Source of the DNA: Chrysomallon squamiferum
Lineage: Eukaryota; Animalia; Mollusca
Assembly (NCBI GenBank): GCA_012295275.1
Contig: CM022670.1
Coordinates: 10,850,001-10,914,000, forward strand
DNA length: 64,000 nt
Direction: 5' to 3'
The stretch's first letter is position 1. Each line of letters begins with the position of its first letter. This document shows, piece by piece, positions 1-41,918 of the stretch. Both the position numbers and the translations under genes were made by a program. The notes beneath the pieces are model-generated. The model did no database searches. It was not told the origin of the DNA and saw only the letters and a list, made by a program, of their open reading frames with translations.

Positions 1-3000
1 GCAGCAACAGCAGCAACAACAAGCTGAACTGGCCAACATGGCGATGGCTGTGTCACTGCCTCAGATTTACGGAGACGAACGTGACACAATCATTGCTAAG
101 TGGAATCAGCTGCAAGCCTTCTGGGGAACAGGCAAAGGTTTCTACAGTCAGAATGCTGCTGTCACCTTCAAACCAGATAATCCATTCTGTCGTTTTAAGG
201 TAATAAAAAGCAGCCTCTTAATTCATTTTATGTCCATAATTTTGTTGTTGTTGGAGAAATAATATTTGTACCAAAGGAATGCATATATTAATAAATGTAT
301 AGTTATATGAGATTTTATACATTTGTGCAAACAAATGGAAAAACATATGCACACTCTTATACTAACCTCCCAAAATGCAAACAATGGAAAAACATATGCA
401 CATACACCTATACTAACCAACCCAAAATATTGGCATAGAATTGAAGTATAAAAAAAATATGTATGTATAAATCTATTTTTATAGATTTTAAAACTAGGTC
501 TATTAACAATTTAAGTATGTGTTTTTATTCTTATAATCTATGAATTTTATACACACACACACCACATAAAGGGGTGAGACACAGAGTGAATGTTTTATAT
601 AAATCTCCATAACTTCTGTTTTCTTTTTTTTCTTTCTTGCAGGCAATTGGGTACTGTGTGATTCCCAGTGGTAAAAATGAAGATGGTCTAGTCGCTCTCA
701 TGTTGAAGAAGAAACAGCCTGAAGTGTCAGCTGTACAGCAGCAGATAGTGGACACCATTTACAGAATACTAGGAAGTAAACACACTTTGTCTCTCTGTGT
801 GGAAGGTGTCAGGCCCATACCAGAGGACAGGTGTGTTATTGTTTTTCATTACATTCAAATGCATATAGCAGTGAAACAAATAAATTAATCAGTAAAGGAG
901 AAAGAGAAAGACTAAATATATGAGAGGATAAGTTTATCTGTTGTAACAGAGAATACTTCACTGAGAAACTGTGTTATACATGTGTTAATATTTTAATATA
1001 TAGAAACAGATTTTATGTTTTATATATATAGATAGATCTGTATGTGTGTATGTAAATCAGTGAGTGTATGTGTGTGAGGCTGCATGTCTGTCTGTCTGTC
1101 TGTATGTATACAATTATTCTTTGTGCTCATCTATCTTGAGCATTACTAATATCTTTATCTTCTCCAACATAGTTCCATATCCTCACAAATTCTTAAAAAT
1201 GCAGCTTATAAATATTTGTATTTTATTTTAAAAAACCATATATTTTATGCATCTATTTCATCTGTTAACTTACCTCTGTATTGAAAATGTTTTAATGTTG
1301 TTTTTCCACAGAACAGAACTTGTTATTTATGTGCTAGAAAGACCACCATCGGGGCCAGCCAAGCGGGTCCCTTGTATTGATCTCTACAACTTTCTTAATC
1401 AGCCAAACATCAAAACTCAACTAGAAACACAGCTCACTGTCAACAACATTGTGCCAAAGATGGGCTGGTCAAAGGAACAGCTGAAGGAGTATCTGGACAA
1501 GCCTCCTGCAGGTAGAAAATTTTCTCTGTTGTTATTATACATTGTTAGAATTGATTTCAGTTACTTTAATTCATCTGATGATGTTCACATGTTGTGATTA
1601 TTTGCATGAAAACATTTTTAGAAGGATAACACATTAATTTCTATAACAACTGGTTTTTAATCCTCTTTTTTTTCACTCTGCTTTAATTCAGTAATGGTTC
1701 CAATATTATTTAACTGGATGTAGAACTGTTTTGATGTAATTATAAAACTATTGTAGAAAAAGAACAGTTTATTTAAATTTCATTAAAGTCAGCTTTAGTA
1801 ACTAAAAATTCCTTTTTTAACAAGGATTATATATAAATAGCTATGCAGAAAAACATGGGGACAGAAGTGAAAATAAATTCAGCACATGTCATTTTGTAAA
1901 ACATTGGATTGAATAAAATTTGGTAAATACTCTGATGCTGTTTGTGTGTATTACAGGCATTGATCCATTGCTATGGCAACAAGCAAAACTAGATAATCCT
2001 GATCCAGAGACTCTGATACCTGTTCCAGTGATTGGCTTCAGAGAAGTTCAGCTGCGATTGAAACATCAGGAGGAACAAACTCGACTTCACCAACAGAGAC
2101 TTGATGTAAGTGAGAAGTAACTGCCAAGTTTTAATTCTTTTAACAAGTTCAGTGGTGAAAATTATTTTTAAATTTAATTCAGCTTTGTTCTGTGCTATTT
2201 CATACACTTTTTAAATTTTATTTTTCAGGTTATGGCTGAAGATTTGACAGAATTACAAACTAAACACAGTAACATGTTAGCAAAGTTGGAAGAATACAAA
2301 CGAAAGCATCTTGAACTTGGTCACTCACTTCTTGAGGTAAACACCGTATTACGATTTACAGATCACATATTCTTTAATAAATTAAAATTACAGAAGCATT
2401 TTATTTTTGTTTTATATTTAGGCTTCAGTGCAACAGAAAGATGTATTTACAGATAATGTATTCTATAATAAACGAAAATGACAACAGTAATGTTTTTATT
2501 TTCACGCTGTAGTAAAACAGGATATATACAGAAAGCTAGAAGTTATAGATCATTATATAGTATAATAAAATTACAATAGAAGTGTTTCATTTTCAGGTTA
2601 TTGTGAAACAGGAGATATACAGAAAGATGGGATATGCAATCCAGGCTGAGGAAGAACAGCTCAAAGTACAGCTAGAAGCTCTACAGACAGAGCTGAACCA
2701 CCCAACTCAGTTTAAGGTATGTCATTAAAGATAAAACTTAATAATGTTTGAAATCTACACAGTAATTAGTATTATAAGAATTTACTGAATCACAGAAGAG
2801 GTAATAAAAAGTAAAGAAAAAGAATGAGTATGATTATTCTTATATTATTTTATTTTTTTTTTCTACTTTGATAATTATATATTTGTTTTATTTATTTATT
2901 TATTTTTTTTTTTTTTTTGTTAGACCAAGCTGATGATATAAAATTAAAATAATATTTATTAAAGTTTTATTTTATGTTCAGAAATTCTACAATTATCTTC

Positions 3001-3886
3001 CTGTTATTTTTCCTTCTCTTGGTTAAGTTTGGAATTTTTTTTTTTTATAAATATCTATTGATGCCAGTGTCATTACAAATTTAGAAGAATTGAAAAATCA
3101 TTAATCATTTTAACAGGAGTGAAAATAAATAAATAAAATTATTTTTATTTTATTTTTGCAGGGCCGACTGAATGAATTAATGTCACAGATTCGTATGCAA
3201 AACCAGAATTCATCTCAGCGGCCAGAATCAAGTTACGAGCTGGATCGTGATCTTCAGATAGAAATGCAGCAGGTATTTCAGTTCACTTTAAATTTTACTT
3301 TGTTTGCTGTAAGAATAAAATTGCATATAATATTTTCTTGTTATATTCTTCATGAGGAATTAAATAAAGAGGGAAATTACCGTTTTTAAATCTTTATTCA
3401 GAAACTGTTAACTCACTTTAGGCAATGTACTCAGGAAATTCAGTAATCTGAACATTTTTCTTTTGACAGATTTAATACATATTAAATATATATTATATAT
3501 ATATATATATATATATGTAATTACCAGATCAATATGAGTAACTTTGTGATAGAATAAAACATAATATCCAAAATAATTATCATTAATGAACTGGTAATGT
3601 AACTAAAAAAATCTTAATACTTTAATACTGTTCAACTTCAGTGCAATTTATTAAAGATTGTTAATTTAATATATAGCAACTATTTTGTTATAATAAATCA
3701 GTGATCTTTTGTTTATACTATATTATTTCTTTCTGCTAATGTTTCTTTTTTTTTAATTTAACTTTTTAGATGCTAAAACAACAGCAGGAAGGATTACAAC
3801 ACCTGATTGAGATAATAAAAGAGGACACACAAGATCTTCACTTGATAGAACAAGGACTTAATGATTCTGCACCAACTCGAAGATGA
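1..3886 (+). CDS. NUP54: Nucleoporin p54, 5'-partial. Exons <1-199, 643-830, 1312-1511, 1957-2105, 2229-2336, 2597-2716, 3162-3272, 3770-3886
   Basis: GT-AG exon chain stays in frame. Motifs IYGDERDTIIAKWNQLQAFWGTGKG, NPFCRFKAIGY, PPAGIDPLLWQQAKLDNPDPETLIPVPVIGF and PTQFKGRLNELMSQIRMQN match recalled Nup54 sequence. Stop TGA at 3884-3886. Confidence 0.95.
324..428. repeat. Two-copy ~50-bp tandem duplication in a NUP54 intron
   Basis: tgcaaaca(a)atggaaaaacatatgcaca...tatactaacc...cccaaaat occurs twice in tandem. Confidence 0.75.
2464..2630 (+). repeat. Degenerate ~92-bp tandem duplication covering a NUP54 splice acceptor and exon start
   Basis: 2486-2539 (tgtttttattttcacgctgtagtaaaacaggatatatacagaaagctag) parallels 2578-2630 (tgtttcattttcaggttattgtgaaacaggagatatacagaaagatgg). 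Confidence 0.7.
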
Positions 3887-6207: not shown

Positions 6208-7408
6208 TATTACAAGAATAAATAGAAATGCATGGAACAAAATATTTCACAAATGTCATAACAGCCGAGTGCATGCTCATAGTTAAATTAACAGTAGTGC
6301 ATTAAATGCAAACAATTATTAATTAGTTTCAATAATGTTTGTGTGCAAGTGTCTGTGACTTTTCTATATAATATAAAAACTAGCAAAAGTGAAAAAAATG
6401 TTCAAAAAAATTAATTACCAAGCAGAGTCATTAATGGCCAAATAATGATCTAAATCTGGCTGAAAAATTCAAAACAATTAAAAAGATGCACCCAGTATTG
6501 TGACAAATGAAAAATAAATCTTTATTTTCAAAAATCCATATCTGTAATTTATTCACCCTCAATCACTGACTACAGAGATCATGAAACATAATATTTATGT
6601 GAGCAAGTTTGAAAATGCATTAGGTATGTTCAGGATTGTTAAAACAACACAAACACATTAACAAAAGAAAATAATAAATAAATAAATATGTTTATCAATT
6701 TCATTAGAACTGTGCTTGACTAGCAATTAAATTTGAAATTCTGAGATATTTTGTTGAAAAATGAAAATATTAATATTTATCATGCCTCTTTTCTTGATGC
6801 CAAAAGCAACATAATGCTAAAACGTACAAGATGTTTTAATTATTCCCTAAAATTAATAAATAACAAAGTAAATATTTTATTTTTGGTTTTACTTCACTTT
6901 ATTTGCAAATGCAAGAACAGAAACTCTTTTTTGTTTCGTTTTAATAAGCAAAAACAAAAATGAATCTAAATACATGTAACAATTGTAAATTAAATATATA
7001 AATAAATTAACATTCTGACATAATGTAACTGATGTAGAGCACTTGAAACATACAAAAAACCTCCAATAGCTTACACTACAATGTCCAATTTTTTTTAAAT
7101 TAAATTTGCCACATGAGAGTCAGAAGGATGTAAAAATGTAAGAAAAGCAACTTTCAGAAATTCAAGGATAACTGGTTGTAAAGTGTTGATCACAGAAAAC
7201 GTAAGCAGGCAATGCTATTCTGAATATAGTATATGGAGTTTAATTTTTTTGACATAATGTTATCAAAGTTATCTTCTTCAAATTACCATACCAATGGAAT
7301 TGAACAAAACCCTTGAAAAATTTCACAAATTAAGCATAACCAATCATGTTTCTCAAAACCAATTTGTTTGTGGTTTCTCCCTTCTTGTGATATTATGCAA
7401 AAAATTAT

Positions 7409-9128
7409 TCACTGATTTCGATCATTCATCCTTCTCGTTTTTGGGGGGCTCAGCAAAACGTTTGCCGACACCGAAGTTTCATCTGTTTCCATAGAAACCT
7501 CACTCGCCTGAGTTTCACGAGTCTCAGATTTGGCAGACGATTTCTTCCTTTTCACTGCTTTGCCTGTTGCCGCCCTGGCTGCTGTGGCCTGCCACTCGCT
7601 CTGTACCTTCAGTCTCAGACTGTGAAGCAGTCGACTCATGCACATGTTGGAGGGCAGATCGGAGACACGGGACATGACCTCCATCCTGCACTCGGGACAC
7701 CTGAACGTGCTGCTCTGACAGAAAACACATTTTGTCGAATTGATCGTCTCCAGCAGTTTCTCCAGACACCGTCGATGAAACGTGTGCTGACAGGGCAGAT
7801 ACTTGTTGGTATGATCCAAGGTCTGCAGGCAAATGGCACACTCCAGCAGTTTGCCCACTGCATTCGGCATCTTGCTAATAAATGCTACAACCAGCTCCTG
7901 CAGCTTCCTCTTCAATGTCTGACACAGAGGAACTCGGCAACTGTCGCTGTCGAGCTGGCAGTGTTTGGCATGGTATAGACACAGAATTTTGAAGTTTTTG
8001 CACGTGGCACAACCTCCTATCAGTCCGATCCTACATTTACGAGTGTGATCCTGCACATACTTCATCTTCATGCAATTCTTAATGCGACAGCGAACTTCCG
8101 TACAGTGACATGAGTGAACTAATACTGTCATACACTTCTTTAATGTCTTCTTTCTCTCCTCTGATGTTGCTTTCTCTTTCTGAGTGACATTTTTGTTTTC
8201 TGAAGACATTTTACTAGTTTCTTTTTTCTTTTCAGCATCTTCTTTGGCCTATTTATAAAAATAAAATTTTAATTTATCTTTATATGTGTGTATATGTATG
8301 TATGCATGTGTGCCTCTCTCCTATATATATATACATATACACCTTATAAACATCCAGTTAAACATTCTCAAATTCAAAGCACTTTTATAATTGTATGAAC
8401 CTTATCAGTTTTACTCTTGTGTAATGCAACAATAGAAATCGTGAATTTCTGCCCATCATAATTTCAAACTGGATATTTTGACAGCAAAGGCAGAAATAAT
8501 CACTTACCTTTCTACGAGTTTGAGAGCGAGTAACTATAGTTGAAGGAGGAGTCTGAGAACAACCTCTTCTAAAAGCTGATGCTGTCTGCTGAGCTACTGA
8601 TTCTGCTGTTACTCGCAGAGCCTTGTCTGCAGAAGATGAAATCTGGGAATCAGCTGATTTTAGAAGTCTTTTTGTGTGCAATCGAGTCCTTGGACCCCCT
8701 GTTCGTAAATCAACATGATTTCCTGCTGTGTTTTCTGCTGGAGATGATGTACAGTCAGTGGTAGTTGATTGAGGTTCTGTTGCTGTAACACACCTTTTTG
8801 ATGACAACGATGATGATGAATTGGGCTTGGGCACCTGTGCTGACAAAGTTTTTAAAGCAAGAACTGTGGCTTGGGATTCAATGTTCAGCTCACATTTGTT
8901 TTCCAGGAGTCTGTTAATCCATATGTTAGTTGGTAGGTCCACAATGTTTTTACCTACTGATTTCTTACACTCAGGACATCTCCAGAAACGAGTCAGCCGT
9001 ACACGATTCTCTAAACACTCTATGCAAAGTGTGTGTTGGCATGGCAACAGCTTACTGGTGCTGTCTAGAGAATTGTTGCAGGCTGTGTTATTACACTGTA
9101 GGAGAGACAGAAGTGTCTGCTGCTCCAT
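7409..9128 (-). CDS. Uncharacterised RING-TAZ-RING zinc-finger protein, ~486 aa, putative E3 ligase. Coding exons 9128-8508 and 8248-7409
   Basis: Acceptor at 9164-9163, ATG at 9128, donor AAG|GTAAGT at 8508/8507 (phase 0), acceptor TAG| at 8249 in frame with the 8209-7409 ORF. RING1 is LLQCNNTAC-x12-CQHTLCIEC-x12-CPEC..DLPTNIWINRLL. The TAZ domain has three H-C-C-C clusters. RING2 is LLECAIC-x12-CQHTFHRRC...CPEC..DLPSNMCMSRLL. Confidence 0.85.
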
Positions 9129-10377
9129 TGCTGTGTGAAATTTCACAACAGCATTTGTGACCCTGAAAATAAAATGTTTTAATTACCACTTGATAAATTT
9201 GACATGGTCCTTTTTTTTCTCTTTTTTTTTTTTGTTGTTGTTTTCTATATTTTTATATGCAGGATGTACTTATCTGCTATAAAGAGTACTTTAAACAAAA
9301 TTACAAACAGATATACACATTTAACTTTGAATATTATTATAACAATGCACACATCTCATTCTTGCTATATAATAATAGTTAATATAATTTAATTTGCATG
9401 ATGACCACCACCACCCAAAAATCAACATATTATAAAAACAATTATGAATCACCAATATTAAAAATAATAAATTTAAACCTGTGATGTGATATCTAAACTA
9501 TTATTTTCTAAAGTTTCCTGAATGGGAGGGGGATATATATCCAAAACATTAAATTCTCAGGCTAAATTCTGACTGTACCAAGACAGCTATGTTAACTATC
9601 TGATTACCATCAGAACTTTCAGTCTACCTCTCTATCAAATTATTAACCCCCTGTTGTGTCACAGACGTTTTCCTAAGGAAAAAAAGGAAATAAATAAATG
9701 AAAAAATATTAGGCTGATATGTTACAAGTACAACTGTGGATTATACTTTCAGTTTTAATATTTTTCTGGTGATGCTGTACTACCTCTTTCAAAAATATTG
9801 ATACAAACTCTAAGTTTTGTTTATCCAATATCTGAATATGATGTACTAGAAATAATCAATTAAGAGATATGCATGCAAACCAAACCACAAAATAATAAAT
9901 AAAAACACAAAAAAGCTATATAATATAATTATATTCAATTATATTGTGCTGTGAAGACGTCTTCATTTCCTTATGAGTTTCTAAGTCTAACAGTGCTACT
10001 TCACGTATGTGTGTAATAGTAACAGCATTACATGATTACTTTTACTACTGTAAAAAATTACAGATGGTTTTGTCTAGAACTGATACATCATGTATTACAT
10101 GCACACCCTGTTGGGGATAACATTAAGTTGATTAACAGTATTCAGTAACAAATACATATCGTTTGTGATAGTTATGCGAACTACATTTGTTTCAATATTG
10201 GTTATCTCTTAGTTTCTTAAAACAAAGAAAAATGTTACAAAATAATGTAACTGAAGCTGAGTGATGACATGCAGTGATAGGCAGTTCACAAATGAATTTG
10301 AGATTATTTCCACGTCCTTTATTTACAAAATCGAGACTGTGTGTGTCATAAGTTATTTTTATAATCGAATTATATAC

Positions 10378-10762
10378 CTTTTCTCTTAAAAAAATTCCTT
10401 TAAATGCTATGTTTCTGCAAAGGTAGCAAAATCTAAACCGGTATTATGGATATAAGAAGAAAACGGAATTAAGAAAATGGCGACTATTTGGGTGCGGAAA
10501 TAAAAAAATTGTAACAAAACAGTCTGTCCGCAGGGTTAAACAAAAGAACTACGGCGAAAGAAATATACTGATACTTACAAGAAACCTGAAAGTAACAACA
10601 CATAAATACTTTTACTGTATATGTACCGAAAGTAAACGTAATTGTATCCAAGAAACACCAAGCCAAGTAGATCGTCAATAAAAAAAAATTCTTAGGTTTA
10701 GCACTTAGCACAGTCTTAAACTTTCAGCTTCCGTCGACAACTTCCTGTTTAAAAAATCCAGC
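10378..10762. promoter_or_regulatory. Probable bidirectional promoter and 5' non-coding exon region between the RING-TAZ-RING gene and KRI1
   Basis: Locally CpG-richer. Minus-strand donor candidates at 10378/10377 (AAG|GTATA) and ~10579 (|GTAAGT). YY1-like AAAATGGCG at ~10474-10482. ETS-like CTTCCG and ACTTCCTG just before the KRI1 ATG. Confidence 0.5.
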
Positions 10763-19762
<9,000 letters not shown>

Positions 19763-37274: not shown

Positions 37275-38305
37275 GTGACTGTCCGAGACTGAAACGTTTT
37301 GGGGGTAAAGCTACAGAGTATTCCCCTAGAGCTAAGATTAGGAATTTGCTTGGGTAAGGATCAATATCAGGGACTGTAACAGCCAAATATATGTGTGTAT
37401 GTATGTTCATGTGTGTGTGTATGTTCATGTGTGTATGTATATGTATATATAAATAGATATGTGTGTTGTGTGTGTATGTATATATAATATATTTATTGAG
37501 TAAGTAAGTATATCTGTATATGATATAAATTTGCTTTGCTCATATATATAATACAGCAACTGTGATGATTTAGTGACATTTACTGAGAGAAAAAGATTAA
37601 ATGATGTTACCACATATCTTCTAAAGGAGGAATATGTTGTTTACATTGCTGTAGAGTGTTTTGGATATCTATATTCTAATTTATGTTTTATACTGTTAGT
37701 TTTTCTGGATTTTTAACCTACATTATTGTTAGTGGTTTTTACTTCCTAATGTATATTTACTTATCGTAATGAATTTTATCCTGTTAAATATTAGCTCCTA
37801 TTAATTATTTTTAATACTTCATATTTACAAATATATTCTCATATACATTATAAAAAAATATGTTTAGGAAACTGAAAATTAAACTGAAATCACACATTAA
37901 TAAAAAAAAAAGAAAAGAAGAAGAATGTAAGTCATTTATCAAAATTAATGTTTCAGCAAAATTGTTTAATTATAAATAATAAAATATAAAATTTGGAGGT
38001 TATTGTTTTTAACTTGTAGATACAGCCTTCCTTTTGATCGGCATGACTGGATTGTTGATAGATGTGGAAAAGAAGTCCGATACATCATTGATTACTATGA
38101 CGGAGGTGAAGTAGATCCAAGCACCTACAGATTCACTTTACTGGATGTACGACCTGCATTTGATTCTTTTGGGAGTATATGGGATAGGATGAAAGTTGCT
38201 GTGATGCGCTGGCAGATAAATTTCTCAGAGAAAGAAATACCCACTGGTATTCATATTGTAACTCACGAAGAAAGCATGGAAACTAAAACATCAGAGAAAA
38301 CATAA
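35405..38305 (+). CDS. HCCS: Holocytochrome c synthase. Exons 35405-35587, 36461-36611, 36859-36979, ~37270-37353, 38020-38305; probable 5' UTR exon ending at ~34485
   Basis: MG start, two CPM heme-regulatory motifs, [68 protein letters not shown] and LDVRPA. The fourth coding exon lacks an in-frame AG acceptor as assembled. Confidence 0.94.

Positions 38306-40076: not shown

Positions 40077-41918
<1,842 letters not shown>

Follow-up and report, generated by a model that had tools for sequence, protein, structure and literature searches.

A spliced, transcribed and lineage-restricted snail gene under purifying selection joins two POSH-type RINGs to a CBP-type TAZ2 domain

The window analysed here is a 64,000-nt stretch of the Chrysomallon squamiferum genome (contig CM022670.1). 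A minus-strand coding sequence within it (9128-8508, 621 nt, phase 0, joined to 8248-7409, 840 nt) gives an in-frame protein of 486 aa with a RING-TAZ2-RING layout. The gene sits in AT-rich animal DNA between Nup54, with which it is convergent, and KRI1, with which it lies head-to-head, and HCCS and actin are found further on. The features of the locus are as follows.

613-3886 (exons 1917..3886 by Pfam), plus strand: Nup54 (Pfam Nup54, Nup54_C), convergent
7012..8248, minus strand: exon 3, with the end of the linker, TAZ2, RING2, tail, stop codon (7411-7409) and 3' UTR
8249..8507, minus strand: intron 2, 259 nt, phase 0, GT...AG (GTAAGT...TAG ends; RNA contigs)
8508..9162, minus strand: exon 2, with 34 nt of UTR, start codon at 9128, RING1 and most of the linker
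9163..10578, minus strand: intron 1 (5' UTR), GT...AG (RNA contigs; GT donor at 10578)
10579..10714, minus strand: 5' non-coding exon, a minimum length, its far end taken from the 136-nt loose end of an RNA contig
10763..19762, plus strand: KRI1 (Pfam Kri1 and Kri1_C at 15693-18181; first exon from ORF translation, where there is no Pfam match)
37976-38305, plus strand: holocytochrome c synthase (HCCS), an ordinary neighbour
40077-41207, minus strand: actin, one long coding exon, an ordinary neighbour

Five public runs cover the locus and we examined four of them, the RNA runs X1-X3 from one study and the unlabelled run X5 from a second, as contigs that carry no level, strand or tissue information. 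In all three RNA runs single contigs step from 8247 to 8507 at consecutive record positions, which is the same splice as 8508^8248 with a one-base ambiguity. RNA depth is near zero within intron 2, which also contains a repeat, and X5 reads through this intron. The RNA contigs also confirmed the end of the frame at 7409 and extended as far as 7012, 7042 and 7107. The original prediction of two exons spliced in frame into a protein of about 486 aa was thus borne out, while its account of the transcript had missed the 5' non-coding exon ending at 10579. Contigs X2 and X3 exit at 9162, and their continuing letters correspond to 10579-10601 with one mismatch. The 5' UTR at 9129-9162 (minus strand) holds a three-codon upstream ORF directly ahead of the start codon, and another ATG is present in the first exon. 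About 50 nt separate the presumed KRI1 start codon (10763) from the most distal 5' end observed for the transcript (region 10579-10860) and, since the two genes are head-to-head, a shared housekeeping promoter is plausible.

Pfam identified a RING in the first coding exon, exon 2, barely at the cut-off (zf-C3HC4, E 2.6e-4), and a zf-TAZ domain (E 2.2e-7) followed by a RING (E 3.2e-6) in exon 3. As predicted, the order is RING1, linker, TAZ, RING2, and there was no Pfam match to SH3, HAT, bromo, KIX or ZZ in either coding exon. Pfam likewise gave no match to TAZ1, B-box or BTB in the coding exons or in the ortholog from Gigantopelta aegis described below, and no SH3 match in that ortholog. A linker of ~130 residues lies between RING1 and the TAZ2 region, and the last helix of TAZ2 runs directly into RING2. 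The basic tail that had been proposed to resemble a nuclear signal is present, and its KRKK is kept in G. aegis. The protein features are listed here.

8829..9128 (zinc core 9095-8967), minus strand: RING1 and flanking helices, aa 1-100; POSH-derived C3HC4 with C-x4-C and Lys at the linchpin position
8520..8537, minus strand: conserved island IVTRSQ, aa 198-203, within the fast-evolving linker, resembling the IE1 nucleosome acidic-patch motif
7895..8161, minus strand: TAZ2 domain, aa 237-325; CBP/p300-derived, basic, 12 zinc ligands intact, altered binding groove
7586..7867 (core 7840-7688), minus strand: RING2 and flanking helices, aa 335-428; POSH-derived, His at ligand 5, Arg linchpin
7732-7703, minus strand: RING2 insert of 10 residues with an extra CxxC
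7541..7552, minus strand: KRKK, aa 440-443, a candidate nuclear localisation signal
7447-7430, minus strand: second basic patch, in the tail

The best library matches of both RINGs were SH3RF proteins at 69-75 bits, as opposed to 33-36 bits for the best solved-structure RINGs, TRIM56 and TRIM32; a TRIM origin was rejected on these scores. Judged by sequence, the N-terminal RING of SH3RF/POSH is the ancestor of both RINGs, flanking helices included, and the start Met of RING1 lies 11 residues ahead of the first Cys, as in POSH. The predicted origin was therefore supported, but neither domain is a plain POSH RING. They match POSH RINGs at only 31-45 of ~88 residues (octopus versus insect POSH, 58/78). 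The 161 POSH-like RINGs compared invariably show C-x2-C, a Val preceding the second Cys, Cys as ligand 5 and an Arg following the last Cys. In all three lineages that carry the gene, RING1 shows C-x4-C, Ala for Val and a Lys linchpin, each found in 0/161 POSH-like RINGs; it also lacks a hydrophobic residue after the second Cys. His at ligand 5 of RING2 is likewise found in 0/161, and RING2 carries the 10-residue CxxC insert, while Ile and Leu around the second Cys, the Arg linchpin and the CPxC motif are kept in both snails. The loop residues around the second Cys of a RING contact the E2. Eight zinc ligands are present in cross-brace order in each domain (RING1, C3HC4 with C-x4-C; RING2, C3H2C3). 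With CPEC as the closing pair, RING2 has an Arg linchpin; because the CxxC of the insert is at the exact POSH spacing (12 residues), it could close the ring instead, placing Gln at the linchpin. In the predicted RING2 model (pLDDT 65.6, pTM 0.46), which was steered by the POSH alignment, the CxxC insert is a low-confidence loop. Three unnamed POSH-like RING proteins (P0098, P0127 and P0143), on a separate long branch, carry an insert of comparable size between ligand 6 and ligand 7 that lacks an extra CxxC.

Phylogenetic trees put RING1 and RING2 on very long branches without placing either, and a RING1+RING2 clade was neither recovered nor rejected (p-AU 0.10). The two share an E-x-Q-A motif that the other 162 of the 165 matched POSH-like RINGs do not have, and it is this motif alone that points to an internal RING duplication. 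The predicted pairing of RING1 with RING2 scored 0.46 (best control, 0.02), with at least 41% of contacts agreeing between runs and a partner pLDDT of at least 70, and gave no interface. The mark was reached by 51/78 solved and 2/108 mismatched pairs in the benchmark, and the range up to 0.60, into which this score falls, held only 5/78 solved pairs and all 4 passing mismatches. We take this as a weak indication of pairing, which may reflect memory of solved RING dimers. Fold matches of the RING2 model were the RINGs of TRIM2, TRIM32 and TRIM25, and BRCA1-BARD1 and RING1B-BMI1 were included alongside many other RINGs. An Arg linchpin and a four-helix RING dimer are described as underlying TRIM RING activity, and covalently linked RINGs as rescuing an inactive one (excerpts of PMC13769585 and PMC9732051). 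RINGs with other linchpins can still be active (PMC13769585, in part), and some RING proteins are inactive alone (PMC9732051, in part).

The middle domain matched the TAZ2 structure 2KA6 at E 1.8e-19, and TAZ1 chains made up 0/16 matches. Its predicted model (pLDDT 80-98 over the domain) superimposes on 2KA6 with a TM of 0.87 and an rmsd of 1.4, compared with a TM of ~0.5 to TAZ1. All 12 zinc ligands (three HCCC sites) are present, as had been claimed, and the net charge is +12, as in CBP. These matches indicate that the domain derives from CBP TAZ2 and, together with the SH3RF scores of the RINGs, uphold the predicted chimeric origin. The TAZ2 string quoted in the original prediction, on the other hand, is CBP/p300's own sequence and not that of the window, whose domain is identical to CBP-type TAZ2 at 30/68 residues; quoting it hid changes in the groove. 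Using contact positions taken from the text available for PMC3534135 and bioRxiv 2022.08.28.505448 and mapped via a stored CBP-type protein, we found that 8/17 B-Myb-shifted and 1/6 MITF-contact positions match the CBP-type reference. At positions 1763, 1774, 1775, 1781, 1786, 1787 and 1790 both snails have the same residue, which occurs in 0/56 CBP-like domains (those of 92 other matched domains that passed a 70% identity filter), and several TAZ2 replacements common to both snails are found in 0 or 1 of the 56. The ligand of the altered groove may not be an activation domain at all. For CBP itself, the TAZ2 clients have been reviewed (PMC12547938, in part).

Mixed TAZ-plus-RING alignments misaligned on cysteines and were set aside. 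The TAZ-RING2 model had alignment depth only for TAZ, so it says nothing reliable on TAZ/RING2 packing. Six small proteins (P0003, P0004, P0007, P0009, P0024 and P0033, one named from the mayfly Cloeon dipterum) consist of only two or three tandem diverged TAZ2 domains, and TAZ2 seems to have been copied out of CBP repeatedly in animals.

The ortholog is XP_041359763.1, annotated in RefSeq as 'uncharacterized protein LOC121376052' of G. aegis, with 488 aa and the same RING-TAZ2-RING layout; it was the sole match for the exon 2 query among 219 candidates. Identity between the two snails is 99/104 in RING1, 85/92 in TAZ, 13/13 in the TAZ-RING2 join and 81/87 in RING2, while the linker and tail reach 50/129 and 40/61. 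Overall, 278/296 domain residues are identical (94%) as opposed to 90/190 (47%) in linker and tail (Fisher p 5e-32). The four runs differ from the window at 16 coding sites, of which synonymous changes account for 6/6 in the domains and 6/10 in linker plus tail, in a comparison that pools alleles with contig errors and whose outcome is flattered by transition bias. Selection on the domains is seen in both comparisons. A third lineage is represented by the exon-1 ORFs P0002 and P0152, which share the first coding exon, and the P0152 ORF runs off at the same intron position; three lineages thus have the gene and the intron position in common. The split of two peltospirid genera is placed at 66 and at 116 million years in two genome papers (PMC7736800 and PMC7895826, in part), and these dates serve here as a time scale only. 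Each of the three domains sits on a long branch yet has scarcely changed between the snails, which would fit copied domains that changed role and were subsequently constrained.

We found no wider RING-TAZ2-RING family, and only one complete ortholog in the protein collections searched. A full-length search of 7994 candidates of 268-854 aa gave only the G. aegis ortholog and one SH3RF. In a 50%-representative library, the best 150 of 1323 proteins at E 0.001 included 55 with a POSH-type RING, 96 with TAZ and 1 with both, bearing in mind that library clusters can conceal members, as the G. aegis ortholog itself sat behind P0002. No relative was confirmed among the 97 and 105 pattern matches from JGI metagenomes or the 6 from viral contigs. 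Atlas searches returned sub-threshold RING or TAZ clusters only, none listed with both families, and a viral fold search returned nothing at E 0.001. The one viral structure resembling the TAZ domain was A0A8E7BZP1, annotated as a 'TAZ-type domain-containing protein' of white spot syndrome virus (E 0.44, 25% identity), with no sign of a link. We found no published description of the architecture in a search of open main texts, and gene lists in supplementary material could include the gene; 'TAZ' is absent from the main text of the two peltospirid genome papers as available (PMC7736800, PMC7895826). RING-TAZ2-RING is a real domain architecture whose description we did not find in print.

The pairing of a POSH RING with TAZ2 is not quite unique, and the original statement that no animal family with this architecture had been described holds for a widespread family, none having been found. 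The ant Vollenhovia emeryi has a 229-aa protein (XP_011880020; P0028), named 'SH3 domain-containing RING finger protein 3-like', in which a POSH RING is followed by a CBP TAZ2 with no SH3. It differs from the snail protein in having one RING, which is near insect POSH, includes the POSH linker and keeps the Pro-x-Cys-Arg end intact, and it is known from a single species as a predicted RefSeq model. In a tree of 25 rows chosen from matched proteins, with no non-POSH outgroup, the ant RING fell with insect POSH (99/97), and placing it in one clade with the snail RINGs was rejected (p-AU 0.041). The ant TAZ groups weakly with an ant p300-like protein, and no second RING-TAZ2 protein like it was present among the 120 listed of 216 matches. 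Because its RING groups with insect POSH and union with the snail RINGs is rejected, the ant fusion would be independent, if the model is right.

Within the linker, VTRSQ is invariant in the three lineages, whereas only 19/103 linker columns are invariant; an invariant run of five has p 0.011 by shuffling, and the strict motif occurs in 0/262 other proteins compared and in 0.15% of shuffled linkers. These p-values are flattering, since the motif was spotted after the fact. In cytomegalovirus IE1, Met483-Val484-Thr485-Arg486-Ser487 includes the Arg that anchors the protein to the nucleosome acidic patch (PMC4764553, in part; see also excerpts of PMC9040877), and the snail hydrophobic-V-T-R-S core matches this core in three lineages. 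All three have Ser where IE1 has His481, the loss of which is reported to weaken IE1 binding about 100-fold (PMC4764553, in part). Acidic-patch motifs vary widely in sequence (PMC10606924, in part). The island adjoins the splice donor, so its conservation can reflect splicing signals; the resemblance hints at nucleosome docking. A small basic island, P-x-T-R-L-x-x-K/R-R at 8667-8693 (minus strand) of the linker, is also conserved in all three lineages.

Going beyond the gene structure, transcription, domain origins, constraint and residue changes set out above, we infer a nuclear single-chain ligase in which RING2 is catalytic, RING1 is its partner and a re-specified TAZ2 recruits a few regulators, leading to degradation or regulatory ubiquitin; we give this reading about an even chance. 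RING2, with its Arg linchpin and POSH-like first zinc loop, would bind and activate the E2-ubiquitin conjugate. RING1, with a Lys linchpin and altered first loop, would fold back over the 130-residue linker to act mainly as dimer partner, in an arrangement resembling linked or heterodimeric RING pairs. The basic, zinc-complete TAZ2, changed on its helix-3 face, would bind acidic activation-domain-like segments with a specificity unlike that of CBP. Nuclear entry would be directed by KRKK, nucleosome docking may be mediated by the IVTRSQ island, and a narrow set of nuclear regulators recruited by TAZ2 would be tagged with ubiquitin. In a more specific version, vent snails have fixed an animal 'anti-coactivator', a single-chain, chromatin-docking RING-RING ligase that reads its substrates through a re-tuned TAZ2, and an ant has evolved the POSH-RING plus TAZ2 pairing a second time, independently; we offer it tentatively, as possible but somewhat improbable.

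The broad decoy of the original prediction, which would capture CBP TAZ2 clients (p53, STAT, C/EBP) or viral transactivators and destroy them, fared poorly and now appears quite unlikely. The fold, zinc ligands and basic charge are intact, TAZ2 binding is described as promiscuous and partly electrostatic (bioRxiv 2022.08.28.505448, in part), and apple MdBT2 is reported to target a viral protein through BACK and TAZ (PMC8828459, in part). However, the groove common to B-Myb, STAT1, MITF and E1A is described, in excerpts of PMC3534135, as absolutely conserved across CBPs, yet fewer than half of the mapped contact positions match the CBP type here and seven positions are altered identically in both snails; fixed changes across this groove make a broad CBP-client decoy improbable. 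The domains are highly conserved rather than fast-evolving, contrary to expectation for an antiviral arms race, and the viral-contig scan and viral fold search yielded no viral counterpart. Non-catalytic behaviour, as an adaptor or dominant-negative scaffold with both RINGs serving as interaction modules, would fit the departures from POSH-invariant positions, the low match to POSH and the RING proteins reported to be inactive alone. We consider it unlikely: RING2 keeps its Arg linchpin, CPxC motif and the hydrophobics flanking the second Cys in both snails, and the flanking helices are kept.

A chromatin-directed ligase seems rather unlikely. Here TAZ2 would do no more than bring the protein to loci bound by activators, as it does in CBP, and nucleosomes or other chromatin proteins would be ubiquitinated by the RING pair, docked by the IVTRSQ Arg. 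The invariant VTRSQ with its match to the IE1 core argues for it, as does the presence of the nucleosome-acting pairs BRCA1-BARD1 and RING1B-BMI1 among the fold matches, which included many other RINGs too. Against this stand the post hoc nature of the motif, the absent His481 counterpart, the variability of acidic-patch motifs and the adjoining splice donor. Finally, only one complete ortholog was found in the protein collections searched, as might be expected if the gene were a neutral chimeric relic or an artefact of assembly or annotation, but the exons are joined by RNA contigs, three lineages have the gene and intron position, constraint is strong and the neighbours are ordinary host genes; this explanation is largely refuted and very improbable.

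The gene offers a clean case of a new regulatory protein made from pieces of two old genes, with fast change followed by strong constraint. If the single-chain ligase is active, a CBP activator-docking module would have been turned, in an animal, into the substrate reader of a ligase, as TAZ domains have so far been described to act in plant BT adaptors, and the protein would show in nature how disordered transcription factors can be degraded or marked. With its altered groove, the domain amounts to a natural experiment on what determines TAZ2 specificity, the two unequal RINGs of the single chain would be a natural counterpart of laboratory linked RING dimers, and the ant model suggests that the POSH-RING plus TAZ2 pairing can recur. 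The reach is limited to one snail family, with a RING-TAZ2-RING function that is predicted and has no link yet to vent life or symbiosis.

In comparison with known systems, the protein is not a member of the SH3RF, CBP/p300, TRIM or BTB-TAZ families, since their defining domains are absent. It has the N-terminal RING type, flanking helices and RING1 start Met spacing of SH3RF/POSH, but lacks SH3, has two RINGs changed at POSH-invariant positions, and carries TAZ2 instead, with candidate nuclear signals. With CBP/p300 (KAT3) it shares the TAZ2 fold, the 12 zinc ligands, the +12 charge and 30/68 residues, but has no HAT, bromodomain, KIX, ZZ or TAZ1 and an altered activation-domain groove. TRIM2/3, TRIM32 and BRCA1-BARD1, the best solved-structure matches, have the same RING core with N- and C-terminal helices and, as predicted for the snail protein, unequal partner RINGs; in contrast, the snail protein has no B-box or SH3 by Pfam and carries both RINGs in one polypeptide with TAZ2 between them. 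The closest working analogue would be the plant BTB-TAZ (BT) CUL3 adaptors, such as apple MdBT2, in which a non-CBP TAZ works for a ubiquitin-ligase system and contributes to the choice of substrates, either transcription factors or viral proteins (PMC7468283 and PMC8828459, in part). MdBT2 is reported to need its TAZ domain to bind MdbHLH104, while other substrates bind via BTB/BACK and not TAZ (PMC7468283, in part). The likeness is one of working only, as BT adaptors have a BTB and no RING of their own, whereas the snail protein has its RINGs in one chain, no BTB and a separate animal origin. Overall, by analogy, its way of working would come closest to that of a single-subunit RING ligase that has captured a recognition domain.
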